Source: an uncultured Chloroflexia bacterium (GTDB taxonomy: Bacteria > Chloroflexota > Anaerolineae > CG2-30-64-16). Taken from it: a DNA stretch of 64,000 nt. Under the pieces are notes generated by a model. The model saw only the letters and a program-made list of their open reading frames with translations, had not been told where the DNA came from and did no database searches. The DNA lies in assembly GCA_963808455.1 (NCBI GenBank), contig CAWEHT010000143.1, positions 89 through 64,088 of the forward strand, read 5' to 3'. Below are positions 9,533 through 61,563 of this stretch, piece by piece; the stretch's first letter is position 1; each line of letters opens with the position of its first letter. The translations under genes and the position numbers were made by a program.

Positions 9533-9560
9533 TCGGCCTCAGTTTCCACAAGGGGTGGCC

Positions 9561-11922: not shown

Positions 11923-11931
11923 GAGGCGGCC

Positions 11932-12759: not shown

Positions 12760-12801
12760 CAGGCTTTCGCAGCCTGGAAAGAGGCCCAAGGGGGGCCGAT
12801 A

Positions 12802-13725: not shown

Positions 13726-13796
13726 GGCCGATCTGTAGGACAATTTGAGGAGTTCCTGGCGCTGGCCCGGTAACCTCGGGTTGGGGAGACTTGTCT

Positions 13797-14915: not shown

Positions 14916-16183
14916 ACTCGCGCGAGCGCGTTATCGCCGCCATCCACCACCAACCGCCGGACCGGGTGCCGATCGACCTGGGAGGCACCCAGGCTACCGG
15001 CATCAATGTAACGGCCTACTCAGGGCTACGCCAGGCGCTTGGGCTGTGCCGGCGCCCGTCGCGCGTCTTCGACGTTTTCGGTATGTTGGCCGAAGTCGAA
15101 CCTGATGTCCTTGCCGCAACGGGTGGAGATGTTGCGATGGTGCCTGCTCTGGCGCCTCGCTTTGACATCCCGGTTGCCTCCTTCAAACCTTGGCGTCTGC
15201 CTAGCGGCCTCCCGGTCGAGGTTCCCGAGGGCTTGGAGACGGCATTGGATGACGATGAGGGCTTGCTCCTCATGGTGGCTGGGCGAGCGGTCGGCAAGAT
15301 GCCGAAAGGTGGCTTCTACTTCTCTGAGCTGGCCAACGCCACCATGGGCGGTCTGGATGCCCTGAGAGAACCGCCGGACCCCGATACCGTCAGCTTCCCT
15401 CTGCTGACCGATGAGGACTTGTGTTTCCGCCAGGAGGGTGCCCAACGGCTGCGCCAGGAGACCGATAAGGCGTTGGTCATCGACCTGACCGATAACTGCC
15501 GCTGGGACACCTCCATACCCAACTGGCTCTATGCCATGGCCTCCGACCCTGGCCGTACGGCTGAGCTACACGCGAAGAAGGTGGAGAACTTGCTGGCCAA
15601 AGTGCAGCAGCTGGCCCAGGCTGTGGAGCCCGACGTAGAAGTGTTTGCCATCTACCAGGACTACGGCACGCAGAGGGGCGAGATGGTGGCGCCAGCCACA
15701 TTTGCCCGCCTGATTGCGCCCCATTACCGGGTTCTCTTCGACTGGATCCACCAACATACGCATTGGAAGGTGTTCTTCCATTCTTGTGGCTCAATCTATC
15801 GCCTGATCCCACACATGATCGAGATGGGAGTTGACATCTTGAACCCGCTGCAATCCAACGCGGCCAGAATGGAGCCCGCTCGCCTGAAAGCCGAGTTTGG
15901 CGATCGCCTGGTGTTCTGGGGCGGCGGCGCAGACACGCAAACGACATTGCCCTTCGGCACACCTGATGACGTGCGGGAGCAGGTTGCGCAACGGATAGGG
16001 GTCCTGGGTCGCAACGGGGCCTATGTCTTTGCGCCAACCCAAGATATCCAGGCTGATGTGCCGCCTGAGAACCTGGTGGCGATGTATGCAGCCGCGCAGA
16101 AGCATGGGGTCTACCCGTTGGCGCCCCACGCGCCGGGATTAGAGCCGGAATCTGACAACGGCTTGAGCGAGGCAGTTTGTTGA
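14912..16183 (+). CDS. URO-D / MtaA-like family protein, paralog 4
   Basis: MNSRERVIAAIHHQPPDRVPID; FHSCGS motif; ATGA overlap with paralog 3. Confidence 0.7.
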   Translation: MNSRERVIAAIHHQPPDRVPIDLGGTQATGINVTAYSGLRQALGLCRRPSRVFDVFGMLAEVEPDVLAATGGDVAMVPALAPRFDIPVASFKPWRLPSGLPVEVPEGLETALDDDEGLLLMVAGRAVGKMPKGGFYFSELANATMGGLDALREPPDPDTVSFPLLTDEDLCFRQEGAQRLRQETDKALVIDLTDNCRWDTSIPNWLYAMASDPGRTAELHAKKVENLLAKVQQLAQAVEPDVEVFAIYQDYGTQRGEMVAPATFARLIAPHYRVLFDWIHQHTHWKVFFHSCGSIYRLIPHMIEMGVDILNPLQSNAARMEPARLKAEFGDRLVFWGGGADTQTTLPFGTPDDVREQVAQRIGVLGRNGAYVFAPTQDIQADVPPENLVAMYAAAQKHGVYPLAPHAPGLEPESDNGLSEAVC

Positions 16184-17334
16184 ACTCACGTGTACGGATA
16201 TTGACGGCGCTAAACCACCAGGAGCCCGATCGCTTGCCGTTCGATCTGGGGGGCACTGTGGCATCGGGTATGCACGTCCACGCATACCGGCAGCTACGCC
16301 ACTACCTCGCGTTACCCGAGGTGCCGATACGCTTGGAGCAGGTCCACTCTCAAATGGCGAGGTTGGACGATGATCTGCTCGATCGGCTCGGCGTGGATAC
16401 CCGCTTTATCGGCCGGCGGTCCACCACCCCCGAACTCATCCACCCCCAGCTCGCTGGTGACTACCTCACCTACGAGGACGAATGGGGCATTGGCTGGCGC
16501 ATGCCGGCGCTGGGGGGACTCTACTTCGATGCCTATCTGCACCCCTTCGATGTGGACGACATCAGGGAGCCGCTGGCCGCCTTCCGTTGGCCGGATGCCC
16601 GTGATCCTTGGCGCTTTGAGCTGTTGCGGGCGCAAGCCGAGGAAGCGCGAGCCAAGGGCAAAGCCACAATCCTTCTCGGCCTCTGCGCTGGCACCACCGA
16701 ACAGTACACCTCCCTCCGTGGGTACCTGCGCTACTACACGGACATGGGCGCCGACACTCAAAATGCGGAGTTCTTCCTGGACAAGATGCTGGAGCTCAAG
16801 GCTGCATTCTGGCAGCAAGCTCTGGACCGGGTAGGAGACCTGATCGATGTCGTAAACGAGAGCGATGACTTGGCCGGCCAGCAGTCGATGCTTATGTCTC
16901 TCAAAGCCTACCGCAAGCTGGTGAAGCCCCGGCACCGTGAGCTGTTCGCGACCATCAAGCGCTCGGCGCCGCATGTCAAGCTGCTCCTGCACTCTTGCGG
17001 CGCTATGCGGCCCGTGATCCCGGATCTTATCGAGATCGGGGTGGATATTCTCAATCCCATTCAGTTGGGCGCCCAAGGGATGGATGGCGCCGGGTTGAAG
17101 CGCGATTTTGGCAAGGATCTGGTATTCTGGGGCGGTGGTGTGGATACGCAGGCCACGCTCGTCCGCGGCACCCCCGACGAGGTGCGCGCCGAGGTGCGCC
17201 GGAACATCGAGACGCTGGCACCGGGCGGCGGGTATGTCTTTGCCGCCCAACATGTCATCCAGCCCGATGTACGGCCCGAGAATTTCATGGCGATGTGGGA
17301 AACACTCCAGCAGTATGGCGGTCGTGCCTGGTAA
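16177..17334 (+). CDS. URO-D / MtaA-like family protein, paralog 5 (TTG start)
   Basis: LNSRVRILTALNHQEPDRLPFD; LHSCGA motif. Confidence 0.7.
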   Translation: MLNSRVRILTALNHQEPDRLPFDLGGTVASGMHVHAYRQLRHYLALPEVPIRLEQVHSQMARLDDDLLDRLGVDTRFIGRRSTTPELIHPQLAGDYLTYEDEWGIGWRMPALGGLYFDAYLHPFDVDDIREPLAAFRWPDARDPWRFELLRAQAEEARAKGKATILLGLCAGTTEQYTSLRGYLRYYTDMGADTQNAEFFLDKMLELKAAFWQQALDRVGDLIDVVNESDDLAGQQSMLMSLKAYRKLVKPRHRELFATIKRSAPHVKLLLHSCGAMRPVIPDLIEIGVDILNPIQLGAQGMDGAGLKRDFGKDLVFWGGGVDTQATLVRGTPDEVRAEVRRNIETLAPGGGYVFAAQHVIQPDVRPENFMAMWETLQQYGGRAW

Positions 17335-35051: not shown

Positions 35052-36024
35052 TCACGCGCCGAGCAGTGAGGCGCGCAAGACCGAGGCGTTGAGATGCCCG
35101 GCTGAGAAGGTCTTACCGGTGTTCAGGTTGTTGATCGTGACGCGCGCCGGGCTGAACAGCATGGGATCGATCGAGTAGAAGTCGCCGTAGCGCTTGAAGA
35201 TCTTGTAAAACGGCTGGCCGTAATCGCGCGAGGCCGACGATGGGATGCGTTCGACCAGGTCGGCCAGCTCGGCGTCGTCAGCCCGCACCGCGTAGTAGAC
35301 CTGACCGCCGTAGAGGACGCAGTCGTTCGTGCGTCCGATAGCATGCAGGTCGTCCTTATCGATGGGGGCAACGGGTGCGGTGCCGAAGCCGCTCAACACC
35401 TTGCAGACGTCGAATCCCAGCTCGACCAGCTTGTGCAGCCCCGTCTCGACCACGCGCCGACACCTGCACGGAGCCCGCCAGCGAGGCTGTGGGCGCGATC
35501 AGCAGGGCGAGGTTTTCGGGGGAGACGCCGCACTTGCCCGCGATATACGCCGCAACCTCGTCGCCGGGCAGTTGGCGGCCTTCCAGCACGAGGACAGCGG
35601 CCCCGGCCTGATCGCGGTAGCCCAGCTTCTCGTAGAGCTTCTCGACCAGCGCCAGGGCGCGGGCAGGGCCGGAGCCCATGGCGAAGTACTTGTCCCTCTT
35701 GATTGCCCAGCCCGCGTATTGGGCGGCCATGCAGCCGATGGCCGGTTGGTCCACCGTCACCCCGACACCGGGCAGCCAGAATCCGGAGCCGGCCTCCTCA
35801 TCGAATTGCAGGGGAAGGAATGACACTTCGCCGAGCCCACCCATGCACACCTCGGCGAGGCATTTGCCCGCCTGGAGCCCGCCCAGGGCCGCAACACCGC
35901 AGTCCAGCACCTGCGCGCCGCCGGGCAGCCGGATGACCTGAATGCCGTAGGGCTCGGCGTGCGCCACCATCTTCTCGACGATAAGGGCCGCTTCCTGATT
36001 GACGCTGATCACCCTTCCTCCCAC
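35052..36024 (-). CDS. mch: methenyltetrahydromethanopterin cyclohydrolase, copy 1; frameshift near 35410
   Basis: ISVNQEAALIVEKM, GGLGEVSF, AAQYAGWAI, GRTNDCVLYGG, LPSSASRDYGQPF, IDPMLFSPARVTINNL; paralog of the gene at 44817-45764. Confidence 0.8.
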
Positions 36025-36823
36025 AACAAGATCTCGCCCTTGCCAAGCGCCACTAAGTCACCACAATAGCGGCGGAAAAGGCCGCCGCGGTAGGCGGCCG
36101 GGATCTCCACGCCTAGCGACGCGACGTGCCGGAGCAGCAGGTCAACATAAGAGGCTACAAACGTGCAGGAATATTTGAACGACGCCAACAGCGTAGTCGG
36201 CCCGAAGCCGACCAAGGTCCCGCGCTTCAAACCGGCGCCGGCGCGTTCGCCGAGCCGGCCCATCACCAGGATCGTGCCTGCGATCATGAAGACGCCGGTG
36301 TAGTCGCCGCTATTGCCCCCGATCACGATCAGCCCGCGCCGCATGCTCGAGCCCGCCTCGTTCCCCACGTTGCCGTCGAACGAGGATCACGCCGCGGTTC
36401 ATCCCCTTCGTGCTGCCGCGGTAGCCACCGCCCAGATCATTGCCGGCATTGCCACGAATGCGGATGGAACCGCCGTGCATCTCGGCGCCGGCCCAGTCCG
36501 CGACATTGCCGTTCACGACGATGGACCCGCCGCTCATCTCCGCGCCCAGGTGCATGCCGGCGTTGCCTTCCACGGTGATCCGGCCCTGGGTCATGCCGGC
36601 GCCGATCATCTTGACGCGCTCCAGATCTCCTTCGACCAGGATATCGGGTTGGCCGTCCTCGCCGATCTCGAAGAAGTCGCCCAGGCAGGCCAGCTGGTTG
36701 CCGCAGTTGGCGGGCAGCGCGCTGATCTCGAGCGGGCTCTTGCCGATGAACAGCTCTGGCCGGATCGTCTCGACCTCGATGGGGATCTGTGGCACCTCTC
36801 TGAGCTTCAAGGTTGTCATAGCT
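36009..36823 (-). CDS. fwdC: formylmethanofuran dehydrogenase subunit C; frameshift near 36370
   Basis: GXGXG beta-helix repeats (ITVEGNAGMHLGAEMSGGSIVVNGNV...); C-terminus GLIVIGGNSGDYTGVFMIAGTILVMG in the 36009-36368 ORF. Confidence 0.75.
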
Positions 36824-37703
36824 GGCCCCCCACGACCTTTTGCAGGTGGATCTGGAACTGGCCGAGCGTCCCACCGTAGTTGCCGGCCGTGATGCGGCGG
36901 ATGCCTGGGATGCAGGCTGCCAGGATGCCCACGCGCGTGGCCTCTTCCACGGCGGCCAAGTCCAGCCCATCGATGACGATCTCCAGGACGCTGTTGACGC
37001 CTTCGGGCAGGCCACTCGTAGTTATACCCCGCAACGTTGGACAGAAGGCATCGTTGGTCGAGGCGATCAGGAATTTGTAGCGCGAGCTCGTCTTGCTTCC
37101 GCTGCGCACGATGCCGCCGGGGAACGGCATGATCGCCCCTCGCACCTGCGTCATGGCCGAGATGGCGCATTCGGCAGCTTCCAGCGTGGCGTCGATCGTC
37201 TCGCCAAGGATCAGGAAATTGCCGCCGCCGACGGACTTCTGCATGCCGAACTTCTCCTCGACGAGGAACTCTCCCTCCATCACGGGAATGCGCCAGAAAC
37301 GGCGCTCGCCGAGGAGCTTGCTCATCTGATAACCATCGCCGAAGAAGCGCAGCTGGCCGCCGATGGGCATGGTGGTCGCGCTCTCGAGGCCATTGAAGCA
37401 CGACGTCGTGGGGCAGGTCATCACGCACTGGCCAACGCGATCCATCAGGCGCTTGGGCAGGTCGTCCTTGCCGGGCGTAAAGAGCAGCACGCTCACGCCG
37501 GGCCGGCCGTCGGGCGTGTCGGCCACGGGGCCCTCGATGCCGGCCTCGCACTTGCAACCGATCACGGATGTCGCAAAGCCGGCCATCGAAGTGGCAGCCG
37601 TCATGGCCCAGCGCTGGTTGCACGCCGTGATGATGACCCGCGTGCCCCACATCTTGAAGGCTTCGGCGAAGGTGTCTTCGATTTCTACGCCGTTAATGTC
37701 CAT
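36816..37703 (-). CDS. ftr: formylmethanofuran:tetrahydromethanopterin N-formyltransferase
   Basis: MDINGVEIEDTFAEAF N-terminus; collinear with Ftr throughout; 295 aa. Confidence 0.85.
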   Translation of the reverse strand: MDINGVEIEDTFAEAFKMWGTRVIITACNQRWAMTAATSMAGFATSVIGCKCEAGIEGPVADTPDGRPGVSVLLFTPGKDDLPKRLMDRVGQCVMTCPTTSCFNGLESATTMPIGGQLRFFGDGYQMSKLLGERRFWRIPVMEGEFLVEEKFGMQKSVGGGNFLILGETIDATLEAAECAISAMTQVRGAIMPFPGGIVRSGSKTSSRYKFLIASTNDAFCPTLRGITTSGLPEGVNSVLEIVIDGLDLAAVEEATRVGILAACIPGIRRITAGNYGGTLGQFQIHLQKVVGGQL

Positions 37704-39378
37704 GGGCAGCCTCCATTACCGGGTTCCCGGTCGCAATGTCGAGGAAGCAAGGCACCGAAGCACGCAACGGCAGGTAAGCGTCATAGTCTACCGGATAGTT
37801 CGCGAAATCGACGGTATAGTACTGCTCGAAATCGTCGCATATCGCTTCCTGGATATGCGGGTCGTATTCAGGCGCCACGTAGAGGAGAGTGCCAGGCTGG
37901 ACGCGCACGATGCGTCCGTTCTCGGCCACGATCTCGCCAGCCTTGATCGTGTAGCGCGGGCGGGCAAACATCTCCCCGACGTCGGCGCAATCGGCCGGCC
38001 GCCGATAGATGGCCACGTCGGCGTCGGCGCCGATGCCCAGGTGTCCTTTGTTGGGCAGGCCGAGCCGCCGCGCCGGCCCGGCGCGCGTGATGGTCACGAT
38101 CTCGGGCAGCGTATACTCGCGCGTGAGGTCTTTTAGGCCGGTGCGCGTCCTGGCGGCGCTATGGACCCCCTCCAGCTTGCTCATCCGGTAATCGTGATCC
38201 ATGAGGAGCCTGATGATGTCCGGATAGGCATGGAATGGGCCGGCGTTGGGATGGTCGGTGGTGAGGAAGACGCGCCACGGGTCCTTGATGAGCAAAGCCA
38301 ATTCAAGGCCGATCGCCCATTGCACGGCGTTCACGGCATTGCGTCTGACGAACCGGTAAGGCACCACGCCTGAGCCGCTTTCCATCTCGACGTCGCTGTT
38401 GGCCCACTTGTGGCCTGAAAGCTGGAACAGATGGTACTGCCATGGCCCGTCGGCGGTCATGGTCGTGACGGGCCCAAAGACGACCTGGCCCAGGTCAACG
38501 GTCACGTTGTCATGCTCGTTGACGTAGGCCGCCAGCTGGGGCGCACCGGAGCTGATGTCGGCCCAACCGGTGCCGCCATAGCCGTTGAACTGGGCGTGGG
38601 TGATGTGGATGGGCAGCCCTTCGACGGCCCGGATGCTTTCCAGGGTCGTCTCGATATTCCCCGGCGAGCCGAGGTTGTTGCAGTGGACATGGATCGGGTG
38701 CGGCACGCCCAGCTCTTGCTGCACGCGCGCCAGGTTGACAAGGATCTGGCGCGGCGTCACCGGGAAGGTATCGGCCAGGTCGTCCAGGCTGTGCACGTTG
38801 CGGCCCCACTTCCACGTGTCAACGCCGGCCGGGTTGACGATCTTGATCCCGAAGCCCCCGGTAACATTCAACAGCCAGGCCACATAGTCCTTGAGGCGGG
38901 CGAAATCGCCCAGGGCGATGTATTTCAGGACGAAGTAGTTGTTGCCCATCAGCACCAGGAAGCCCTTGTCCACGATGGGCGTGTCCTGCAGCTCTTCGTG
39001 GACATGGCGCGCCGTGAGCGGCGGGGCTGCTGCCTCGATGACCGTGGTGTAGCCTAACTGCGTGAAGTGATAGCCCGTAACGAATGTCGAGGGGATCGTA
39101 TGCCCCGTGCCCGACCGGGTCAGCTCCGTACGACGGATGGGCATGCCGCGGTGGTCTTCCGGGCACATCTTACGCGCGGCATTGACCTTGCTGCCGGCGA
39201 TATGCGCGTGAAACTCCACCCCCCCGGGCATCACGACCAGGTCACGCGCGTCGAGCACGGGCGCGTCCAGCGCGTCGGCCGCGGCGACGACCTTGCCGCC
39301 CGCGATGCAGATATCCCGCACCTCCCCGTTGATGCCGTTCTTCGGATCATAAACCGTGCCGTTAGTGATTCGCAGCAT
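37693..39378 (-). CDS. fwdA: formylmethanofuran dehydrogenase subunit A (amidohydrolase fold)
   Basis: 561 aa; HAHIAG metal-binding motif; FwdA/FhcA family. Confidence 0.8.
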   Translation of the reverse strand: MLRITNGTVYDPKNGINGEVRDICIAGGKVVAAADALDAPVLDARDLVVMPGGVEFHAHIAGSKVNAARKMCPEDHRGMPIRRTELTRSGTGHTIPSTFVTGYHFTQLGYTTVIEAAAPPLTARHVHEELQDTPIVDKGFLVLMGNNYFVLKYIALGDFARLKDYVAWLLNVTGGFGIKIVNPAGVDTWKWGRNVHSLDDLADTFPVTPRQILVNLARVQQELGVPHPIHVHCNNLGSPGNIETTLESIRAVEGLPIHITHAQFNGYGGTGWADISSGAPQLAAYVNEHDNVTVDLGQVVFGPVTTMTADGPWQYHLFQLSGHKWANSDVEMESGSGVVPYRFVRRNAVNAVQWAIGLELALLIKDPWRVFLTTDHPNAGPFHAYPDIIRLLMDHDYRMSKLEGVHSAARTRTGLKDLTREYTLPEIVTITRAGPARRLGLPNKGHLGIGADADVAIYRRPADCADVGEMFARPRYTIKAGEIVAENGRIVRVQPGTLLYVAPEYDPHIQEAICDDFEQYYTVDFANYPVDYDAYLPLRASVPCFLDIATGNPVMEAAHGH

Positions 39379-40684
39379 GTGAGTTCGCCTCCTTGCGGGC
39401 CGCCAGCAATTGCCGCACGCGCTGCGTGATCCCGCTCAGCACCTCTTCATCGCTGGGAAAAGGCGAAGGCAGGAATTTGTGCATGCGCACCGGCACGTTG
39501 TCCATGCGGTAGAACGTCCCTTCGACGTTGATGCCAGAAGTCCCCGTATGGATCACGACCCTGGCGGCCTTGGTCGTATCCGTGTCATGATTATCGAGGC
39601 AGATCGTCGGGATCTCGCTCAGGTACCGGGACGAAGCTCGTGGGAAGTTGCAGACGGGATCGGCAGCCACGATCAATGCAGCATCGACCTCGCGGCGGGC
39701 CAGGAGATCGACGGCCGTGTATTCACCAGGGTTGAAGCGGGGGTAGCCGCGACCGAAATTGACGGCGAAGGGATACCCGGTCTGCCAGGCGATCACTTGG
39801 TCGTGGCCTGTAACGTTGCCGTGGCCGCGCAGCGGCTGCAGCGCGAATTTGGTATGGGCGTTCAGATCGCGTACCAGCAACATGGCCGCCGCCGTGTTCA
39901 ACTGCCGGCCTCGGGTCTGAGTGAGGCCCAAGCCGACGAACAGGACACCGAACTTGCAAGACATCATGCGTTGGGCGAGGTCTTGGAGCTGGGCCAGGGT
40001 CAGGCCCGTAGCGGCGATCGCGCTTTCATCGACCGGGATGCCCTGCACCAGGCAGCGCAGCGCCCAGATGGCCTCGAAATCACGCGCGGGACGGATCTGC
40101 AAGAACAGATCCGCCAGGCGAGCAGTGGAGGTCGGACGGATGTCGATCACGACCGCGGTGCGCTCTTTACGGCCGGCGGGCCTGTACAGGCCTTTGGGCA
40201 TCACGGCATAGCGCGCGAAATGCCGCGGGTGCGCCTCGGCCGAGTTGGCTCCCCAGTAGATGCACAGGTCAGCCCGATTCTTGACTTCCCCCAGCGTGCA
40301 AGTGGAGTCGCCGGCATACTGGAATCCCATACCGCTGGGCCCATGGCAGACAGAAGCACAAGTGTCGAGGTTGGAGCCCAACAAGTCGGCCAGAGCCACA
40401 GCCTCGCGTTGGGCCTCGCAAACGGTGCTGCTGAGGCCGTAGATCAACGGGTTGCGGCTCGAGGCGAGGTAGCCCGCCGCCGCATCCAAGGCTTCGTCCA
40501 GCGTCGCCGGGCTCTCATCGATCGTGGCTACGTGGTTGCAGGATTGGGTCGAGTGGCCCATGAGCCAGGCGCGCCCCAGCGCGCAGGCTTGCTTGACGCC
40601 GGTGACGTGCCCATCCTCCACCGTAACCTTTATGTCATCACAAACGCAGCCGCAAAACCCACAAACAATGTGCTCGAATTGCAT
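39362..40684 (-). CDS. fwdB: formylmethanofuran dehydrogenase subunit B (Mo/W-bisPGD subunit)
   Basis: N-terminal Fe-S motif CGFCGCVC; putative Mo/W ligand motif SVCHGPSG (Cys-His, as in formate dehydrogenases); ATG at 40684 overlaps the fwdD stop. Confidence 0.8.
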   Translation of the reverse strand: MQFEHIVCGFCGCVCDDIKVTVEDGHVTGVKQACALGRAWLMGHSTQSCNHVATIDESPATLDEALDAAAGYLASSRNPLIYGLSSTVCEAQREAVALADLLGSNLDTCASVCHGPSGMGFQYAGDSTCTLGEVKNRADLCIYWGANSAEAHPRHFARYAVMPKGLYRPAGRKERTAVVIDIRPTSTARLADLFLQIRPARDFEAIWALRCLVQGIPVDESAIAATGLTLAQLQDLAQRMMSCKFGVLFVGLGLTQTRGRQLNTAAAMLLVRDLNAHTKFALQPLRGHGNVTGHDQVIAWQTGYPFAVNFGRGYPRFNPGEYTAVDLLARREVDAALIVAADPVCNFPRASSRYLSEIPTICLDNHDTDTTKAARVVIHTGTSGINVEGTFYRMDNVPVRMHKFLPSPFPSDEEVLSGITQRVRQLLAARKEANSHAANH

Positions 40685-41034
40685 CAGTCCCTCCCGCCGC
40701 CCAACGCCCGCGCGACCACATCCTGAGTCTTGAAATCGGGCATGCCGGAAGCATAGGTTTCCGTGCCCGTCAGATCGCTGGTAGGTGGTCCGTAGGCAAT
40801 GAAAGCCATCCCCGCAGGCAGGTTGCCGGGCTTGCAATGCACGCAAGTCTGCCCGTATGGGCTGGTGAGCTCGACTTCGTCGCCGTTCTGCACCCCCAAG
40901 GCTGTCATGTCGCCGGCGTTCATCTCCAGAGTTGAAACGGCCTCGCGGTATTCTGCATTGTGCTTGCCCATGCTGATCCCGACACCTTGCTTGAGGATCC
41001 GGCCGACGACCAGCAGCAGCTTGATTTCAGGCAT
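40684..41034 (-). CDS. fwdD: formylmethanofuran dehydrogenase subunit D (molybdopterin-dinucleotide-binding domain)
   Basis: 116 aa; DMSO-reductase-family C-terminal-domain-like beta-barrel. Confidence 0.7.
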   Translation of the reverse strand: MPEIKLLLVVGRILKQGVGISMGKHNAEYREAVSTLEMNAGDMTALGVQNGDEVELTSPYGQTCVHCKPGNLPAGMAFIAYGPPTSDLTGTETYASGMPDFKTQDVVARALGGGRD

Positions 41035-42182
41035 ACAGTTCTCCTTTTAGCTCCCCTGCCCGGCGCACGAGGTTCATATAGCAAGAGCTGGCGGTGGGCC
41101 CATCGGCCAGGATGGTACAGACCGGATCGCCCAGCGCGATCTCCTCGCCCGGAAATGGTATATCGCGGATGCCGCGTTTGAGCCAATCGCGGGTGTCCGG
41201 GGTGCGGCAGTCGCGTTCCGCGAATAAGATGGCCTTGCCGTAGAAAGCTCGCGCAACCGCGGCAGGCCCGGGCGACACCCGACCCGGCAAGTATTTTTCT
41301 CGCACCGCCCGCGCATGCCAGCCAAACAACGGCACCCCGAGCGCTTGCTCGACCAGCTCCATGGACGCCGAATAGCGCGGATTGACCTCGAGCGGGCAAA
41401 TGCGCCCATCGTTCAATATGAAGTCCACGCCGTTGAGCCCGGCCAGGTGAAATTCGCGGGTCAGGCCGGCGACCAGCTCCTGCCGCGCGCGCCGCCAGTT
41501 CGGGACGGGCACGCTCGTCTTCCAGCGCCAGAGGGTAGATGTTGCCGCAATAGGTGAAGCCCGTGGCGCCAAATTCGGGCCGGCCGATCAGTTGCTCGCT
41601 GAGCCCAAGGAGCAGGGCATCCTCGCCGTTGGCCAGGAAAGCAGCCGAACAGCTCCGTCCGGCCACACATTCCTGTAAGAACCAGCCCGCTCCTACGAGA
41701 CCTTTGCCATCCCAGAAAGCGATGCCGTGCCCGCCACCGCTGCGCACCGGCTTGCGCAGCCAGCGCACGCCGGAATCCGAGGGCGGCGAAGCCCCCCCAA
41801 GAACCGTCTGCGGCACAGGGAAGCTATGACTCTGCAAGAAACCGGAGAGGGCCGGCCAGTGTCTGACCCGAGCCAGCACATCGGGGCTGTTGCCCAGCAT
41901 TTCTGCCGGCCGCGCAGCCAGCGCGGCGACGATCCTCGGATGGTTTTCGAGGCTGGAGGCATAGGCCACGGCATCATATGCCAGGCTGCAGCTGGCCTCG
42001 AAGAGCCTGGCAGGCTCGAAAGGCCAGCCGAAATCCCTTTTCAGCGAGTAGTTCTCGCAGCAGAGCTTTTGATCGTAGTCACCATAATAATCCAGGGTGA
42101 CGAACTCGAAGCCCGCGGCTTTGGCCGACTGGGCCAAAGCCCGGGTGCTCATGCCGGCGATCAGAATGCGCATGGCCGCCAA
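41027..42182 (-). CDS. ATP-grasp-domain protein of H4MPT/methanofuran islands (MfnD-like?); frameshift near 41570
   Basis: N-terminal MRILIAGMSTRALAQSA; C-terminal GVDFILNDGRICPLEVNPRYSASMEL in the 41027-41572 ORF. Confidence 0.5.
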
Positions 42183-42368: not shown

Positions 42369-43463
42369 TCAGCGCGACAGGAGGCGCTGTCGAAGGGCCT
42401 CCGCGCCCTGAACGTGCAGATGATCCAACACTGTTCCGCTGGCGCCCCGGATCTCCAGGATCTCCACCAGGCGTGCAAACCGGCCGCCGGCCAGACCATC
42501 GGCAATTAGCGCTGCTCCCTGGGCAGCTTCTTTGGCCACCCGGGCGATACTTTCGACGCGGCGCACCGGGCCAAAGCTGCTGAGCCGCCGCACCAGCTCT
42601 TCACGGATCACGGCCGTGCGACACAGCCGGCCCGAGACCAGGATCTCGCGCGGCCGTGGCACGACCGCCAACTCCGCGGCCACACTCTTGACCACACCCT
42701 CCAGCAGCGCCTCCCAGGCGATACGGGCCCGCTCGTCGTGCTGGGCAAGGCCGGCGAACTCCTCGGGCGCAAGGGTGGGCCGGCCGGCCACGTAGGCCGC
42801 GCCGCCACTGAACAAGACCTCTTTGTGGAACGCACCCAGCAAGTAGGCAAGCTCGGCGTCCATGCTTCCCAGCGACTGATAGCCCGGGCCGCCGCTGGTG
42901 CCACCCATCCCATCCACTACCCGACCGCCGTCCACTGCCATGACAGCAGTGTAGGCACCGCCAACCTCGACATACACGAAAGACGTCTCGGCAAAGCCGA
43001 TCCCAAAGCACCGCGCCTGGTCGAAGATGCCCAACGCCAGGCAGCACAGCTTGTCTGCGGTGCCCATGTCCACCTTGTTTGCCTTGCGATGTTCAGGGAC
43101 GGTGGGCAGATGGATCACCCCCGGCAGGAACACGATAGGCAGCCCGCTCTCTTTCATCAGCGGGATCAGCTTGCCCATCCCGCCCAGCCCAGAGGCATGA
43201 TGGCGCTCGCGCTCATCCACCAGCGTGAACAGGAAGCGTTCTTGGGCGCCGAAATCTGCCAGGGGGGTCAACGGGAGCCCATAACCCGAAGGCGCGGCAA
43301 TCAGATCGACCGGCGCTGCGGACTTCAACAGATCGACCAGGGCTCCCGGGTGCGCTGCGAACTCGGAAGAAGGCAGCGTCGTATCCAGGAAGACCTGGCC
43401 GTTGTCGATCCCGCATACGTCGAAGCTGACGGTGCCTGGATCGATGCCGACCGCGCGGGTCAC
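42369..43463 (-). CDS. ASKHA-fold conserved protein (DUF1464-like) found in H4MPT C1 islands
   Basis: N-terminal AVGIDPGTVSFDVCGIDNG; conserved context between an ATP-grasp gene and mtdB. Confidence 0.4.
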   Translation of the reverse strand: MTRAVGIDPGTVSFDVCGIDNGQVFLDTTLPSSEFAAHPGALVDLLKSAAPVDLIAAPSGYGLPLTPLADFGAQERFLFTLVDERERHHASGLGGMGKLIPLMKESGLPIVFLPGVIHLPTVPEHRKANKVDMGTADKLCCLALGIFDQARCFGIGFAETSFVYVEVGGAYTAVMAVDGGRVVDGMGGTSGGPGYQSLGSMDAELAYLLGAFHKEVLFSGGAAYVAGRPTLAPEEFAGLAQHDERARIAWEALLEGVVKSVAAELAVVPRPREILVSGRLCRTAVIREELVRRLSSFGPVRRVESIARVAKEAAQGAALIADGLAGGRFARLVEILEIRGASGTVLDHLHVQGAEALRQRLLSR

Positions 43464-43471: not shown

Positions 43472-44326
43472 CTACAACGCCTTACCGATGGCGTAGATTT
43501 CTTCGACGTCGAGCACCAGGTCGTTCTGCTCGAAGAGTCTGGCCACAGCCGCCCGGTGGATCTTCATCTTCAGCCCGCCGATGCCGAGGGCGCCAAAAGC
43601 CAACCTACCGTCGCGCTCTTTGCCGTCGTCGGTGGCCTTGATGCCTTCGATGCCCAGCGGCGGCACGGCGTTGATATCGGCGAGGACCCGCAGGGCCGGT
43701 CGAGCGGCCCACAGGGCTTTGGAAACGAGCTGGATGCCGGCCGCGCCCGCGGCCAGGGCCACGGCCGCCCCTTCCAGCGCCCTAGCTGCCGTGCCGTCAT
43801 CGGAGACCTCCGCCGGCAGGACTTCCAGGCCAAAACGGGCTTTGATTTCCTGGGCCGCCTGTTGCGCGCGGGCAAACACGCGCGACGTGAGCGTCACCCT
43901 GGCACCTTCCTTGGCCAGAAGAGTCGCCGCCCGGACGCCCACGGGGCCCGTGCCGGCGAAGATCGTGGCCACCTGGCCGGCCACCGGCATGGCGCGCGTG
44001 ATCTTCAACACGGCCGCGGCGGCAGTCGTATTGGAGCCGTTGGGGTCGGCCATGACCGAAACGCGCACCGGCCCGAAGAAGGCAGAAGCGGCGGCCTTCA
44101 GCATTTCTTCGCCCAGCGGCACCGAAGACCCACCGATGAAGATCGCGCTGTTCTTGAGCGCATCGCCACCGCGGGTGAACATGGCGCCATAGACCAGGCC
44201 TCGCACGTCTTTCACGGCCACATCGCCATACCCGATGACATGGTCCACGCCTGCGTCGTAGGCGGTAATGCAGTCAAAAGAACTCGGGTGTTTGTCGCTG
44301 TCGAGTTGTATCAGGAGTTTGTGCAT
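43472..44326 (-). CDS. mtdB: NAD(P)-dependent methylene-tetrahydromethanopterin dehydrogenase
   Basis: collinear with MtdA/MtdB (HKLLIQLDSD, AYDAGVDHVIGYG, FFGPVRVSVMADPNGSNTTAAA); 284 aa. Confidence 0.8.
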   Translation of the reverse strand: MHKLLIQLDSDKHPSSFDCITAYDAGVDHVIGYGDVAVKDVRGLVYGAMFTRGGDALKNSAIFIGGSSVPLGEEMLKAAASAFFGPVRVSVMADPNGSNTTAAAAVLKITRAMPVAGQVATIFAGTGPVGVRAATLLAKEGARVTLTSRVFARAQQAAQEIKARFGLEVLPAEVSDDGTAARALEGAAVALAAGAAGIQLVSKALWAARPALRVLADINAVPPLGIEGIKATDDGKERDGRLAFGALGIGGLKMKIHRAAVARLFEQNDLVLDVEEIYAIGKAL

Positions 44327-44816: not shown

Positions 44817-45764
44817 ATGATAAGTGTCAATCAACAGGCTGCCCTGATCGTTGCGGACATGGTCAGCCAGGCAGAGCGGCTCGGCATCAGTGCCACGAGC
44901 CTGGACTGTGGTACCCAGGTGATCGACGTCGGCCTCAGGTCGCCCGGCGGGCTGCTGGCCGGGCTGCAAACCGCCCGTGCCAGCATGGGCGGGATGGGCC
45001 AGGTCGAATTCCTGCCGCTGGACTTCGACGGTCTGTGGCTCCCGGGGGTCGGCATCACGGTTGACCAACCGGAAATCGGCTGCATGGCCTCGCAGTACGC
45101 CGGCTGGGGCATCCGCAAGCCCGGCTTCTTCGCCATCGGCTCTGGGCCGGCACGTGCCAGGGCCAGGGTCGAGCCGCTGTTTCAGAAGTTAGACTACGCC
45201 GACGATGCCGATCTCGCTGTGCTGATCCTCGAAGGCCAGAGCCCTGTCACTGAGGCGATGGCCGAATACATCGCACGCAAATGCCGGCTGCAACCCTCGG
45301 CGCTGACCCTCATCATGGCTCCGGCGGCCTGCCAGGCGGGCCTGGTCCAGCTTTCTGCCCGCGCCGTAGCAACCGGCATGCACAAGATGTTCAAGCTCGG
45401 TTTCGACGTACGCAAGGTGTTGCACGGCTACGGCAGCTGTCCCATCGCGCCGGTGGTTCCCGACGAAGACCTGGCCTCGGCCCGGGCCAACGATTGCGTC
45501 CTGTACGGCGCACGCGTGCAGTACGCGGTCCGGGCGGACGATGCCGAGCTGGCGGCGTTGATCGAGCGGCTCCCTTCCCTTTCGTCGCCCGAATGCGGCA
45601 CGCCCAGCTACGAGCTGTTCAAGCACTATGGCGGCTTCTACGACGTCGATCCGATGCTCTTCTGCCCGTCGGAAGTGACGATCAACAACCTCGCCACCGG
45701 GAAGACATTCCATTCCGGACATCCCCATCCGGAGGTGCTAAAGAAATCGCTGCTCGGCAACTAG
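44817..45764 (+). CDS. mch: methenyltetrahydromethanopterin cyclohydrolase, copy 2 (intact)
   Basis: 315 aa; full Mch motif set; the only plus-strand gene in the C1 island. Confidence 0.85.
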   Translation: MISVNQQAALIVADMVSQAERLGISATSLDCGTQVIDVGLRSPGGLLAGLQTARASMGGMGQVEFLPLDFDGLWLPGVGITVDQPEIGCMASQYAGWGIRKPGFFAIGSGPARARARVEPLFQKLDYADDADLAVLILEGQSPVTEAMAEYIARKCRLQPSALTLIMAPAACQAGLVQLSARAVATGMHKMFKLGFDVRKVLHGYGSCPIAPVVPDEDLASARANDCVLYGARVQYAVRADDAELAALIERLPSLSSPECGTPSYELFKHYGGFYDVDPMLFCPSEVTINNLATGKTFHSGHPHPEVLKKSLLGN

Positions 45765-45806
45765 CTGGCGATCGCCGGGCGCTTGTGATCTGCCCGTGGT
45801 AAAGGC

Positions 45807-45848
45807 GTGCGGGGCTCATCGGCCGCTACCGCGGGATGAGCCCCGCAC
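45807..45848. terminator. bidirectional hairpin (14-bp perfect stem gtgcggggctcatc/gatgagccccgcac) between convergent mch (copy 2) and the 519-aa gene
   Basis: seen in the sequence; 14-nt loop; no U-tract. Confidence 0.4.
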
Positions 45849-45871
45849 ACCTGTCAGGTCAAGCGATCAGG

Positions 45872-47431
45872 TTAGACCGCCAGGTTCCACTCGTCGTAGC
45901 CCTTCGCGCCACGGCCAGCGCCGGTCACGTAGGGCACATTGACCTTGATCAGGTCAGTCTGGGCGCTCCCCTTGTCGACGCGGGCCGGAGCAGCCGGCTC
46001 GCCCGGATGCAAGGCCACGATGTTGGTCATCAACGTCGCGGTCACGCACTCGGTGGTCAGGAAGCACGGGTAGTCGGCCAGGCTCATCAGAGCGGCGAAG
46101 CGCTGGGTGATAGCGCAGGCGGGATAGGTGTACCGCTGCGGGTTCATGATCACCGGGTTCTTGTCAATCGGGGCCAGGTCCACCGGGATGCCCTTGATCT
46201 TGGCGCCCTTGCCGCCGGGTTCCGGTGCCAGGATTTCCTCGCCGCGCTTGAGGATGTCCATGAAGTTGACATTGTGCAGCTCGTCGGCCGCCCCGCGGTT
46301 CGGGTGCATGGCGACGTAGTTGCTGAAGCGCTTGGACAGCAGGTCGATCACCATCGGGACCGTGAAGGAGTCGAGCCACAGGATGTAGGCCACGGCGCAG
46401 GCGCCCGCGCCGGTCGCGACCGTCAGGACCGCGTACTCGTTCTTGTAGGCGTTCGCATGGAGGCCTGCCTGCAGCGTGCCCTCGAAGCTCTTCGTGACCG
46501 CTTCGTAGATGGCAAAGGCCATGTCATCCTTGAACATGTTGAAGGTCGCCGGGCCAAGATGATGGCCCACATCGCCCACGCAGTAGGCCGGAACGGTCAC
46601 GATGTTCGCCGGATGAACGCCCGCCTTGAGAGCGGCCAGGACGACCGGTTTCATCCGTTCTTTGTACTGGCGCATGTAGTCGCGGGTGTCGAAAGAGGAG
46701 TGAGGCCCGTGGCCACCCAGGTTGTGGGTGTCCATCAGTCTCCCCTGGCCTTCGATCGGCTCGCGATAGATGAACTGTAACTGCTCGACTTCTTCCTTCT
46801 CAGCTTCGGCGGCATCCTTGCCAGACTCCAGGGCTCCCCGGAAGGCCGCGCCGATACCGTACGAAGAGTTCATGCCCCACGACTTGGAGGCCAGGATGGT
46901 CTGCTTGTGCGCCACCGGGATATCGAGCTTGTGGGCCTCCCCACGCAGGATCCTGTTCACGACGTTGGAGGTCGAGCCGGGCGAGAAGGCGAAGTCCACG
47001 ACGCAGCTCATGCCGTACATGCCGCCGTAGATGCGGGCCGCTTCGCGGCTGATCAAAGCCTTGTTGGCGGCGATGGCATCGATGAACTTCCACATGGAAG
47101 CCTTGAACTCAGGGTCGGCCTCGTAGAGGATCTCGAGGATGGGCGGTGTTTGATAGTGCTCGACGAAGGGATCGTCCTCAGGTCGAATGGTTCCGTTGAC
47201 CGCGATCTTGGTCAGGATGTCATAGTGCGCGTTCACCGACTGCACGTGCAGATCGAACACTTCTTTCGACTGGCCTGCACCCGGCTTCATCCCGTTGACG
47301 GCATCAACATAGGGTTTGGCATCGGTAAAAACAAAGGGGCCGCCACGCTTCTTCGAGATCACATGCAGGTCGGCGTCGGCTGCTGCCGATGCTTCGGCGA
47401 TCATCTTCTCGTAAATTGCCTTGTCTGCCAT
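45872..47431 (-). CDS. conserved hypothetical protein (519 aa) embedded in the C1 island; family not recognised
   Basis: long uninterrupted ORF with coding-like composition; no Fe-S, PLP, P-loop or Rossmann motif recognised. Confidence 0.5.
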   Translation of the reverse strand: MADKAIYEKMIAEASAAADADLHVISKKRGGPFVFTDAKPYVDAVNGMKPGAGQSKEVFDLHVQSVNAHYDILTKIAVNGTIRPEDDPFVEHYQTPPILEILYEADPEFKASMWKFIDAIAANKALISREAARIYGGMYGMSCVVDFAFSPGSTSNVVNRILRGEAHKLDIPVAHKQTILASKSWGMNSSYGIGAAFRGALESGKDAAEAEKEEVEQLQFIYREPIEGQGRLMDTHNLGGHGPHSSFDTRDYMRQYKERMKPVVLAALKAGVHPANIVTVPAYCVGDVGHHLGPATFNMFKDDMAFAIYEAVTKSFEGTLQAGLHANAYKNEYAVLTVATGAGACAVAYILWLDSFTVPMVIDLLSKRFSNYVAMHPNRGAADELHNVNFMDILKRGEEILAPEPGGKGAKIKGIPVDLAPIDKNPVIMNPQRYTYPACAITQRFAALMSLADYPCFLTTECVTATLMTNIVALHPGEPAAPARVDKGSAQTDLIKVNVPYVTGAGRGAKGYDEWNLAV

Positions 47432-47558
47432 AGTTGATAGACCTCCATTGGTATTGCGCTTCGTGTCGCGCTAGCAAAATTCGACTGCGATCAGGGAACT
47501 AGAGACGACAAACGATCCGGCGGTGTCGCAAGCCTTGCTTTTCACCTCCTTTCCGCGT

Positions 47559-47819: not shown

Positions 47820-48035
47820 AACAACCCCCGTACCGATAAAATCAGCCGAGCGCCATTGGAACGTTCCATGGCAGCTCGGCTGTGCGTTTCACAACGGACC
47901 AGCAGCTTCGCAGTCCCACGTTGCTTGGGTAGCCCATGTATTCAATTACATCAGTGATATGGAAGAACATGGCTAATATAACACATCCTGATGACCTTGT
48001 CAAGGGCCAGCATGGATTTCATACGGATTTTGTAC

Positions 48036-49022
48036 CTAAGCCGTAGGGTTAAGCACGCGGATCTGGGCGCCGTGGCTCGCGGCGCGCGCCAGGTGCGCCT
48101 CGCCATGGCCGGAATGGGCCAGATAATCTTGCGCCGATTCCAGCAGGCTGGCCGCGTGTCGATCGTCCCGTGCCAGTGCGTAGACGGCCGGACCCCAGGA
48201 ACTCTGGCCGGCGCCGTGCGCACCGCGTGCCAGGAGGTAGGCGATCAGGTCGCTCGAAAGGGTATTGGCGTAGCGCCCGCCCTGGATGGCGGCGAAGCTA
48301 TCGCCCACCAGTTGCTGGATGGCGGTCAGGGCTTCGCCAAAAGAGATGATATCTTGCTCTATGAGCGCCGGCAGCAGCTGCATCACCAGGCGCCGGCAAA
48401 CCTGCTCGACCAGCCCCTGCGGCGCGGGTGGCAACGTCTGGAAGGCGTGGTCCTCGGAGGCACCGGAGATGCCCGGTGGCGCGCCCGGCACGACCACGAC
48501 CCAGCGCCAGGCCTCCGGGAACGGGCGCTGGACGAGCACCGGTGGGGCCTTGTGATCCGCCCCGGCCAAAGCATGCCCGCCGTCCAGGATAAAACCGCCC
48601 CCTTGAAAAGCGGCAATCCCCACCCCGGAATGTGTCCCCCGCCCCATAGCCTCTGCTATGGCAGGCGGTTCCAGATCGGCACCGGCCAACCGCGCCAGGA
48701 CCGCACCCACCGCCAGGGCCAACTGGGTGCCCGAGCCCAGGCCCACATGCGGCGGGATGCCACCCTTGAGACGTAAGCGCACCGGCGCGCGGCACGGATA
48801 ATGCTGCTGGAAGCGACGCGCCATGGCGTCTACCCGCTCGGCCTCGAGTCCTTCGACCTGCACGGCGCCACCTTCTGCGCCCGAAGGCAGCAGTTCGGCT
48901 TCCAGCACGACATTAGGGCGGTCGATGGCGACGCCGAGGCTACCATACATCCGGCCCAGGTTGCCGTTCATGTCGATGAGCCCGAGGTGGAGGCGAGCGG
49001 GCGTCTCAATGAGCAGCTTCAT
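48036..49022 (-). CDS. mptG: beta-ribofuranosylaminobenzene 5'-phosphate synthase (H4MPT biosynthesis; GHMP-kinase fold)
   Basis: ARLHLGLIDMNG and GLGSGTQLALAVG motifs; 328 aa. Confidence 0.75.
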   Translation of the reverse strand: MKLLIETPARLHLGLIDMNGNLGRMYGSLGVAIDRPNVVLEAELLPSGAEGGAVQVEGLEAERVDAMARRFQQHYPCRAPVRLRLKGGIPPHVGLGSGTQLALAVGAVLARLAGADLEPPAIAEAMGRGTHSGVGIAAFQGGGFILDGGHALAGADHKAPPVLVQRPFPEAWRWVVVVPGAPPGISGASEDHAFQTLPPAPQGLVEQVCRRLVMQLLPALIEQDIISFGEALTAIQQLVGDSFAAIQGGRYANTLSSDLIAYLLARGAHGAGQSSWGPAVYALARDDRHAASLLESAQDYLAHSGHGEAHLARAASHGAQIRVLNPTA

Positions 49023-53518: not shown

Positions 53519-54250
53519 GTGTCAACGGAGGCCCGCGTGCAGCTGCTGATCAGTGTGGTGAACGCCGGGGAAGTCGAGGCGGCCCTGTCCGGAGGCGCCG
53601 ATATCCTGGACATCAAGAACCCCGGCGAAGGCTCGCTGGGCGCGCCGGCGCCCGGCCTGATCCGGCAGGCCCGGCGCCTGGCGCCGCGGCCCCAGGCGGT
53701 CAGCGTTGCGATCGGCGACATGCCAAACCTGCCTGGCACGGCCGCGTCGGTGGCCCTGGGTGCGGCATCCTGCGGGGCCGACTACGTCAAGGTCGGGCTG
53801 TGGGGTCCGTGGACCGTGGGCGAGGCGGAGTCCCTCTTGCTGCTGAGGTTGGCGCCGCCTTGCGAGAGGCGCCGCGCTGCGTGTTGATCGCAGCGGCCTA
53901 CGCCACGCCGACCGCACCGGGACGCTCGACCCGCGGTTGCTGCCCGGGATTGCTGAGCGGGCGGGCGCGGCCGGCCGCCCTATCGACACAGCGATCAAGG
54001 ATGGCCATCGCCGACTGGACTTCCTGGCCCCGGAAGCGCTGCGGGCCCTGGCAGAACAGGCCGACGTGCCGGCCTGCTCTTCGCCCTGGCCGGCGCCCTC
54101 CAAGAAGCGGATCCCCTCGTGCTCCGCGACCTGGGAGCAGACGTCGCGGCATTCGGTCGGCCGCTGGCCGGGATGGGCAGCGGGCCGGCCCGCTGGACGC
54201 CGGGCGGGTGCGCCGGCTGCGCGTGATGCTGGCCACGCCTCTGGCGCAAC
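53519..54250 (+). CDS. MfnB-like (4-(hydroxymethyl)-2-furancarboxaldehyde-phosphate synthase / DUF556 family), left-arm copy; frameshift near 53860
   Basis: QLLISVVNAGEVEAAL..GADILDIKNPGEGSLGA; intact copy at 60844-61563. Confidence 0.55.
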
Positions 54251-60843: not shown

Positions 60844-61563
60844 TCAAGGTTGCGCCAGAGGCGTGGCCAGCATCGCGTGCAGCCGGCGCACCCGCCCGGC
60901 GTCCAGCGGGCCGGCCCGCTGCCCATCCCGGCAAGCAGCCGACCGAATGCCGGCAACGTCTGCTCCCAGGTCGCGGAGCACGAGGAGATCCGCTTCTTGG
61001 AGGGCGCCGGCCAGGGCGAAGAGCAGGCCGGCCGCGTGGGCCTGTTGTGCCAGGGCCCGCAGCGCTTCCGGGGCCAGGAAGTCCAGTAGGCGATGGCCAT
61101 CCTTGATCGCTGTGTCGATAAGGCAGCCGGCCGCGCCCGCCCGCTCGGCGATCCGAGGCAGCAACCGCGGGTCGAGCGTCCCGGTGCGGTCGGCGTCGGC
61201 GTAGGCCGCTGCGATCAACGCGCAGCGCGGCGCCTCTCGCAAGGCGGCGCCAACCTCGCGGAAGAGGGACTCCGCCTCGCCCGCGGTCCGCGGACCCCAC
61301 AGCCCGACCTTGACGTAGTCGGCCCCGCAGGATGCCGCACCCAGGGCCGCCAGCGCGGCCGTGCCAGGCAGGTTTGGCATGTCGCCGATCGCAACGCTGA
61401 CCGCCTGGGGCCGCGGCGCCAGGCGCCGGACCTGCCGGATCAGGCCGGGCGCAGGCGCGCCCAGCGAGCCTTCGCCGGGGTTCTTGATGTCCAGGATATC
61501 GGCGCCTCCGGCCAGGGCCGCCTCGACTTCCCCGGCGTTCACCACACTGATCAGCAGCTGCAT
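60844..61563 (-). CDS. MfnB-like (DUF556) protein, right-arm copy (intact, 239 aa)
   Basis: mirror of 53519-54250; single ORF. Confidence 0.55.
   Translation of the reverse strand: MQLLISVVNAGEVEAALAGGADILDIKNPGEGSLGAPAPGLIRQVRRLAPRPQAVSVAIGDMPNLPGTAALAALGAASCGADYVKVGLWGPRTAGEAESLFREVGAALREAPRCALIAAAYADADRTGTLDPRLLPRIAERAGAAGCLIDTAIKDGHRLLDFLAPEALRALAQQAHAAGLLFALAGALQEADLLVLRDLGADVAGIRSAACRDGQRAGPLDAGRVRRLHAMLATPLAQP

Follow-up and report, generated by a model that had tools for sequence, protein, structure and literature searches.

Here we analyse the DUF2193 gene of an uncultured Chloroflexia bacterium, which lies in a 64-kb stretch of contig CAWEHT010000143.1 (hereafter the window, meaning the whole of this stretch) within an island of genes for tetrahydromethanopterin (H4MPT) and methanofuran (Table 1). 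The gene context of DUF2193 places it at the node of formaldehyde and methylene-H4MPT, and makes it a strong candidate for the step that brings a one-carbon (C1) compound into the H4MPT pathway. The family itself was already catalogued; the form encoded in the window, which lacks the C-terminal cysteines of other members (the Cys-less form), and the linkage to H4MPT genes are new relative to the literature searched. No link between DUF2193 and H4MPT was found in that literature, and none is mentioned in the only two papers that it yielded on the family or its locus tags, both of which deal with the protein of Methanococcus voltae (PMC12375889, PMC9431491).

An earlier note on this DNA had left the open reading frame (ORF) unmatched to any family and had called its product uncharacterised. 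The former statement is overturned by a full-length match to Pfam family DUF2193 (PF09959; E 1.2e-213; 710.6 bits versus a cutoff of 25; profile positions 2-491 of 498), and the latter needs qualifying, as this Pfam family has been the subject of one biochemical paper (PMC12375889). Apart from DUF2193, nothing was found in the protein by Pfam (E <= 1) or by a sequence search of the PDB, and NCBIfam gave no match. When 1.84 billion cluster representatives were searched exhaustively with phmmer, 134 matches were returned, with about 15 full-length clusters, all of them DUF2193. Judged by sequence similarity, the family is small and isolated; InterPro counts 340 members, 82% of them archaeal (PMC12375889). 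The structure search that the earlier note had suggested provided a fold but no counterpart: the AlphaFold2 model of the window protein (pLDDT 93.4, pTM 0.93) is all-alpha, with 24 helices, whereas Foldseek found no match for this model in the PDB (best E 0.07, TM <= 0.15). No housekeeping family was matched by any of these searches, and the C1 synteny described below is very strongly kept.

Gene neighbourhoods of DUF2193 in bacteria and archaea

A scan of one genome per species yielded 485 stretches encoding relatives of DUF2193, of which the best 80, being 66-79% identical to the window protein, were studied. ORFs were called in 85 loci (seeded with DUF2193, and by tblastn) and clustered, and the cluster representatives were annotated with Pfam. 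The hosts of the best 80 belong to the Chloroflexota/Anaerolineae, the Thermoleophilia and other Actinomycetota, the Syntrophobacteraceae, Desulfovibrionaceae and other Desulfobacterota-type lineages, the Synergistaceae and the Caldisericota, together with single metagenome-assembled genomes (MAGs) of Spirochaetaceae and Armatimonadetes. Genes for H4MPT- and methanofuran-dependent C1 conversions are known to be scattered over Chloroflexi, Synergistetes, Deltaproteobacteria, Actinobacteria and other non-methylotrophs (PMC5020050), and what feeds these scattered pathways is the question that the synteny of DUF2193 addresses.

Throughout the 85 loci, DUF2193 is typically the first gene on a strand that continues with genes for MtdB, an ATP-grasp protein, an FwdD-like subunit, FhcB, FhcA, Ftr, FhcC and Mch, and this C1 operon is surrounded by genes for the biosynthesis of H4MPT and methanofuran; the smallest operons read DUF2193-MtdB-...-Mch. 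At least one of mtdB, fhc, ftr and mch is present in 53 of the 58 bacterial loci that extend for at least 8 kb downstream. Four of the five remaining loci contain H4MPT biosynthesis genes, and the fifth, from Dethiosulfatarculus (L079), contains only DUF2193 and a gene for a MIP channel.

In 39 of 84 bacterial loci, such a channel gene comes directly 3' of DUF2193 in the same orientation (median gap 117 nt), and it adjoins DUF2193 in 91% of the methanogen homologues (PMC12375889). The linked channel is an orthologue of AqpM, as indicated by E values of 2e-65 to 3NE2 and of only 1e-25 to 1e-20 to AqpZ/GlpF, and the AqpM selectivity filter F-I-S/A-R is present in 27 of 28 cases. Three further partners recur: an Isf-like flavin mononucleotide (FMN) reductase with a CX2CX2CX5-7C motif, located downstream (32 loci); a small Cys-rich DUF2180 protein (31 loci); and a glutaredoxin (Grx)-fold protein with an N-terminal CxC, which is found in the window and 11 other loci, always directly 5' of DUF2193 and never alongside DUF2180. 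Two Anaerolineae loci have the order DUF2193-SDR-ThiS-AFOR. The gene fae, in turn, is nearly always missing: a tblastn search with the Fae sequence of 1Y5Y gave no match in 88 of 89 loci, and none at E <= 10 in the 64 kb of the window, just as the earlier note had it. The sole fae-positive locus (L015) has DUF2193-MtdB-Fae-ATP-grasp in one operon.

Two observations are recorded here for completeness. A protein cluster located upstream of DUF2193 in Thermoleophilia ('c30') was rejected as an Arg-rich frame artefact. In three loci (L024, 13116-15434; L067, 9408-11792; L038, 3634-5958), the H4MPT genes are separated from DUF2193/MIP by a recurring gene pair, encoding a protein of about 595 aa without a Pfam match and one of about 170 aa whose match is confined to the C-terminal part of the LarC nickel-insertion family.

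The named archaeal hosts of the family are all methanogens, Archaeoglobales or Thermoprotei MAGs. The order is DUF2193-DUF2180-MIP in Methanospirillum and DUF2193-MIP in a Methanobacteriaceae MAG. In three Archaeoglobales loci, two of the Geoglobus type and one of Archaeoglobus sulfaticallidus, the MtrH gene overlaps that of a second DUF2193 paralogue by 4-8 nt, and in the two Geoglobus-type loci this paralogue is followed by genes for a PNPOx-like protein and a NirSir/ferredoxin protein. A third type of paralogue is present in GCA_003935005.1, where the order is AFOR-DUF2193-Mer, with an overlap of 4 nt between AFOR and DUF2193, amid genes for URO-D, corrinoid, RACo and MtrH methyltransferase proteins. 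Thus, the enzymes that recur as neighbours in archaea and Anaerolineae either have methylene- or methyl-H4MPT as a ligand or oxidise aldehydes. It may be added that A. sulfaticallidus (L090, CP005290.1; 1-1952 and 5186-7449) has both family types 4 kb apart, DUF2193-DUF2180-MIP being on one strand and MtrH-DUF2193 on the opposite one.

Conservation of DUF2193 and the lost cysteines

The protein of M. voltae, MvoDUF2193 (Mvol_0354), binds a [4Fe-4S] cluster, one per subunit, through a C-terminal cysteine motif (PMC12375889, FEBS Lett 2025). This cluster-binding motif, CX2C...C (CX2CX6DX2(H/C)X2C in methanogens), was said to occur in every member of the family, and a role as iron-sulphur (Fe-S) carrier or regulator was proposed by the authors (PMC12375889). 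We identified the C-terminal CxxC...C motif in 179 of 189 full-length relatives, and the window protein is an exception; at the level of sequence, its Cys-less form contradicts the motif by which the family was defined. The remark in the earlier note that the protein has no cysteine clusters is borne out, as its six cysteines (143, 284, 345, 439, 456 and 462) are scattered. According to an alignment of 63 sequences, the likely cluster ligands are C456, which is invariant, and C486, C489 and C513, which are present in 57-58 of the 62 other sequences. Three of the four are substituted in the window protein (C486D, C489S and C513D), leaving C456 alone. With three ligands gone, it is unlikely that the window protein would bind a [4Fe-4S] cluster in the same mode.

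The loss is shared by a small set of relatives. The motif is missing from 10 of the 189 full-length relatives, eight of which are close relatives of the window protein (P0001-7 and P0032) and two divergent members. In a neighbour-joining tree, the window protein, P0001, P0002 and P0004 form a derived group within the Chloroflexi-type bacterial clade, and P0032 branches apart, near the base of that clade, so that its cysteines may have been lost independently. Cys-less DUF2193 proteins are also encoded by loci L001 and L093, which keep both the operon and the channel (DUF2193-MIP-MtdB-...-Mch).

Apart from the three cysteine positions, T189S and D389N are the only deviations of the window protein from columns with a conservation of 85% or more. 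Since nearly all of these columns are kept, it looks functional rather than decaying. Residue 389 is Asp in all 62 other aligned members and Asn in the window protein, and Asn is also found in the near-identical P0320. All 34 columns that are invariant in the 63-sequence alignment are retained by the window protein; 17 of them are polar or charged, C456 and five His among them, and the invariant residues include H69, E91, D146, E214, H273, H291, H386, D453, C456 and E461. The median pairwise identity over the 85 loci is 75% for DUF2193, a figure inflated by the choice of loci on the basis of their best DUF2193 matches, and is 57% for MtdB, 55% for FhcA, 56% for FhcB, 51% for Mch and 68% for Ftr; even with this bias, divergence among the neighbours in these genomes is much greater than in DUF2193. 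DUF1464 reaches 77%, but over a much smaller set of loci, mostly of the Chloroflexi type. DUF2193 is thus among the two most conserved proteins of the island, together with DUF1464. This pattern of conservation appears to suit an enzyme better than a carrier, and the natural Cys-less variants would be useful to separate catalysis from cluster-dependent behaviour.

Possible roles of DUF2193 in the H4MPT pathway

The earlier note had seen in the ORF a candidate for a missing step that generates or activates formaldehyde. The conserved C1 synteny and the absence of a housekeeping match make this a well-founded hypothesis, though one drawn from gene context, and it is strengthened by the fact that fae is nearly always absent nearby, that an AqpM-type channel is linked, and that archaeal paralogues adjoin MtrH, Mer and AFOR. 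We tentatively propose, as a reading with a fair number of uncertain elements in its substrate, its reaction and the role of its cluster, that DUF2193 is an enzyme of new fold that captures methanediol, the hydrated form of formaldehyde, and passes it on to H4MPT. The compound reaching the cytoplasm would be a C1 molecule, small and neutral, with methanediol as the simplest candidate, and the co-encoded AqpM-type channel would be its entry route in most lineages. DUF2193 would then capture this compound and transfer the C1 unit to H4MPT, generating methylene-H4MPT, or, in the reverse direction, would release formaldehyde from methylene-H4MPT; MtdB, Mch and Ftr/Fhc would subsequently oxidise the C1 unit to formate. 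DUF2193 would thus be a functional analogue of Fae, not a homologue, and would act with the channel as GlpK does with GlpF. Its active site might comprise Cys456 together with some 16 more polar residues that are likewise invariant. The C-terminal [4Fe-4S] cluster may couple most members to small Cys-rich partners (DUF2180 and the Isf-like flavoprotein); because the window lineage dispensed with the cluster, it would not be needed for the core chemistry, and it is probably accessory, in a regulatory or electron-transferring capacity.

Several observations weigh against this proposal. Fae is generally to be expected also in the methanogens that have DUF2193, and the presence of fae and DUF2193 in the single operon of L015 speaks against DUF2193 simply replacing Fae, and for its acting upstream of free formaldehyde. 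In the 64 kb of the window, no MIP (tblastn), Isf or DUF2180 gene is present, all three having been lost, and an inverted mch copy occupies the place where the channel gene is expected. The homologue of Methanococcus maripaludis was reported to be non-essential (PMC12375889). The high identity of DUF2193 is in part a product of how the loci were picked, and the functional evidence as a whole is that of gene context. Finally, the Isf-like [4Fe-4S] flavoprotein partner and the cluster of DUF2193 itself suggest redox chemistry, for which a plain condensation would have no need.

The last point leads to a different possibility, which we regard as unlikely: that DUF2193 is an oxidoreductase making formaldehyde from another C1 compound, small and neutral, that can permeate the AqpM-type channel, such as methanol or methanethiol. 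The [4Fe-4S] cluster would pass the electrons on, either to the Isf-like flavoprotein or to the small Cys proteins, and the formaldehyde would enter H4MPT spontaneously or through Fae. Such a reaction would make use of the family's documented cluster (PMC12375889), of the Isf-like FMN/[4Fe-4S] proteins encoded downstream, and of the partner that always adjoins DUF2193, DUF2180 or the Grx-like CxC protein; it would also agree with the coexistence of Fae and DUF2193 in L015, and the AFOR neighbour in several loci would suit removal of an aldehyde product. The clade of the window, however, has lost three of the four cluster ligands and yet keeps the operon, and the window has no Isf gene either. 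A cluster-dependent redox reaction is therefore not the conserved core function, unless C456 and thiol/disulfide chemistry of the Grx-like protein substitute for it. Moreover, no nucleotide- or flavin-binding motif was found in the window protein by the Pfam search, and oxidation of methanol is not known from hydrogenotrophic methanogens with the DUF2193-AqpM pair.

The location of the gene in the island would also be accounted for if DUF2193 makes, modifies, repairs or loads H4MPT or methanofuran/methylofuran, a role that we likewise consider improbable. More than half of the genes of the island are for cofactor biosynthesis (mptG, DHPS-like, AfpA-like, HPPK-GCHY, mfnB, DUF447 and ATP-grasps), the DUF2193 gene of the window lies immediately downstream of the mptG/DUF447 biosynthesis block, and both the range of archaeal hosts given above and the coupling to the pterin-binding MtrH in Archaeoglobales would fit. 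On the other hand, it is hard to see why cofactor synthesis would call for so close a pairing with an AqpM-type channel, AFOR and Mer are neighbours that do not fit, and DUF2193 typically comes first before catabolic genes rather than inside the biosynthesis block. Unlike its neighbours, which match models for RFAP synthase, DHPS-like and AfpA-like proteins, the window protein has no NCBIfam or Pfam match to the characterised families of H4MPT and methanofuran biosynthesis (Mpt*, Mfn*), and since the M. maripaludis homologue is reportedly non-essential and InterPro lists no more than 340 members (PMC12375889), the step would not be a universal one.

More doubtful still is the idea, modelled on what was proposed for the M. 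voltae protein, that DUF2193 is an Fe-S-dependent sensor, regulator or carrier controlling the neighbouring genes or the channel. MIP channels are tetramers, and gating of the channel by a DUF2193 tetramer is conceivable. In vitro, the cluster shifts the apo tetramer towards a holo monomer (PMC12375889), the protein is up 13-fold on pyrite (PMC9431491), and it co-purifies with Escherichia coli RNA polymerase subunits, CRP and Hfq (PMC12375889, PMC9431491). Against this, the window protein matches neither a DNA-binding domain, as Fe-S transcription regulators of the FNR/IscR type have, nor any other known regulatory domain (Pfam at E <= 1, NCBIfam), and a protein of 519 aa with its invariant columns and a median identity across phyla above that of the pathway enzymes is not what a sensor or carrier would lead one to expect. 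In addition, the window clade is without the sensing cysteines and otherwise fully conserved, and paralogues are translationally coupled to enzymes (MtrH and AFOR). Two other candidates were rejected: an arsenic-resistance module (MIP, ArsH-like FMN reductase and Grx), because the FMN_red proteins carry the Isf cysteine motif and the module lies within H4MPT operons, and, for bacteria, a substitute for Mer, the methyl-H4MPT oxidoreductase, because the bacterial loci have no MtrH or other source of methyl-H4MPT.

Returning to DUF2193 as the entry-point enzyme, it is conceivable, if rather doubtful in its full extent, that DUF2193 and the AqpM-type channel constitute a module by which formaldehyde/methanediol, or some other small and neutral C1 compound from which it derives, is taken up, activated and fed into the H4MPT pathway. 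If so, the module would do this in hundreds of mostly uncultured bacterial lineages, which, judged by name, belong to groups known chiefly as anaerobes, and in archaea. It would explain the purpose of the 'orphan' bacterial H4MPT pathways, the substrate conducted by AqpM and the job of DUF2193, and the Cys-less form in the window would represent the enzyme in a version that works without the cluster. The strong conservation of DUF2193, its usual position as first gene and its frequent pairing with a channel provide a concrete biochemical hypothesis for a 'DUF', and the H4MPT synteny adds context beyond the Fe-S carrier or regulator reading of the family's biochemical study (PMC12375889).

The island of the window and comparison with known systems

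The DUF2193 ORF of the window starts with ATG, has its own ribosome-binding site (GGAGG, 7 nt 5' of the start), and shares with its neighbours a GC content at third codon positions of 0.83; the grand average of hydropathy of the protein, -0.095, is soluble in character. The earlier description of the ORF as long and clean agrees with its end-to-end alignment with hundreds of homologues and zero frameshifts. It was also correctly described as convergent with mch copy 2 across a perfect 14-bp hairpin, an inverted repeat located between the two stop codons. The arms of this hairpin (45803-45820 and 45835-45852) are 18 nt each and 94% complementary, with the perfect 14 bp as a core, and the predicted RNA fold has -51.4 kcal/mol (z = -6.1 versus shuffles); it is probably a bidirectional terminator, though it is without a U tract. 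The Grx-like gene and mptG, by contrast, do not come after the ORF, as had been written, but are both upstream of it in the direction of transcription. Given the promoter match upstream of the Grx-like gene and the 3' hairpin, this gene and DUF2193 appear to form a unit of two genes that has a promoter and a terminator of its own.

The leader of DUF2193 contains the motif GAAAGGAGGTGA, which is perfectly Shine-Dalgarno-like, strictly conserved, and additional to the normal ribosome-binding site. It is located 74-130 nt 5' of the DUF2193 start across the 10 loci concerned, which are the window, L002, L006, L007, L008, L010, L011, L012, L013 and L018. In the leader with this motif, no conserved small ORF and no conserved RNA structure were found, and the window has no match to an Rfam family.

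Table 1. Features in and around the H4MPT/methanofuran island, with positions counted in the window
Feature	Position	Strand	Remarks
DUF2193-family protein	45872..47431	-	519 aa, 56.4 kDa, all-alpha; without C-terminal Cys triad (D486, S489, D513), C456 kept
GAAAGGAGGTGA leader motif	47542..47553	-	112 nt 5' of DUF2193 ATG; kept in 10/10 Chloroflexi-type loci
Glutaredoxin-fold protein, 86 aa	47559..47819	-	N-terminal M-x-C-x-C, no canonical CPxC; directly 5' of DUF2193 in Chloroflexi-type loci
Sigma-70-like promoter match 5' of Grx-like gene	47975..48003	-	TTGACA-17-TATATT, 11/12, with TG; consensus match only
mptG, beta-RFAP synthase family (H4MPT biosynthesis)	48036..49022	-	TIGR00144, 197.7 bits versus cutoff 113.5
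GC-rich hairpin between convergent stops of DUF2193 and mch copy 2	45803..45852	.	Inverted repeat and RNA fold
Methenyl-H4MPT cyclohydrolase, Mch copy 2	44817..45764	+	Pfam MCH, E 8e-104; intact, inverted relative to operon
MtdB-like methylene-H4MPT dehydrogenase	43472..44326	-	Mpt_N domain
DUF1464 protein	42369..43463	-	Weak ASKHA/butyrate kinase similarity; conserved in Chloroflexi-type islands
ATP-grasp_3 protein	40920..42182	-	Type found in methanofuran/H4MPT-linked clusters
FwdD-like small subunit	40717..41034	-	tblastn
FhcB/FwdB-like subunit	39362..40846	-	Weak Molybdopterin domain match
FhcA/FwdA-like amidohydrolase	37693..39378	-	
Ftr/FhcD formyltransferase	36816..37703	-	
FhcC/FwdC-like subunit	36024..36822	-	Two frames, apparent 1-bp insertion near 36375 (GTT C GAC GGC)
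Mch copy 1, syntenic end of fhc operon	35058..36012	-	Frameshifted near 35460 (SAR/VVETG junction)

The frameshift in mch copy 1 reflects either a real pseudogene or an assembly indel. The gene mfnB (4-HFC-P synthase) is likewise present twice: the copy at 60844-61563 (-) is intact and encodes a protein 73% identical to the MfnB of L001, and that at 53537-54240 (+), in pieces over three frames, is likely a decayed duplicate. Farther away, five paralogues of the URO-D family (uroporphyrinogen decarboxylase / MtaA-like) are located at 9501-17334 (+), four of them as two adjacent pairs and one ahead, with two other genes interspersed. They are accompanied by genes for an ABC sugar-type transporter, xylose-isomerase-like TIM barrels, an amidohydrolase and a creatininase-family protein; no corrinoid protein was seen among the window ORFs scanned. 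An IS21-type element at the edge of the window (147-2423, -) consists of genes for an IstB-like ATPase and for an IstA-like protein containing Mu-transposase-C.

Three known systems invite comparison with DUF2193. The first is Fae (PDB 1Y5Y). In methylotrophs, fae is linked to mtdB, mch and fhc; DUF2193 has the same linkage in 53 of the 58 loci with enough flank, and holds the position in the C1 island expected of the step from formaldehyde to methylene-H4MPT. The two proteins differ in that they share no sequence similarity and are unrelated in size and in fold (519 aa and all-alpha for DUF2193, versus 170 aa for Fae), and in that they coexist in one operon. The second comparison is with GlpF-GlpK and PduF-type pairs, in which, as in many DUF2193 loci, a MIP channel gene adjoins that of a cytoplasmic protein on the same strand at the head of a catabolic operon. 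In contrast to these pairs, the channel linked to DUF2193 is of the archaeal AqpM type, with its distinctive filter, DUF2193 has no kinase or other known fold, and the window is without a channel gene. The third is MvoDUF2193, from which the window protein differs in having D486, S489 and D513 where the three C-terminal cysteines of the M. voltae protein are cluster ligands, in its bacterial host, and in the location of its gene within an H4MPT/methanofuran island, a link unmentioned in PMC12375889. The likeness between the two is nevertheless extensive: they belong to the same Pfam family over their full length, both are predicted to be all-alpha, both fall in the MIP-linked clade that comprises the methanogen proteins and all bacterial ones, and the linkage to the channel is retained in the closest relatives of the window protein.

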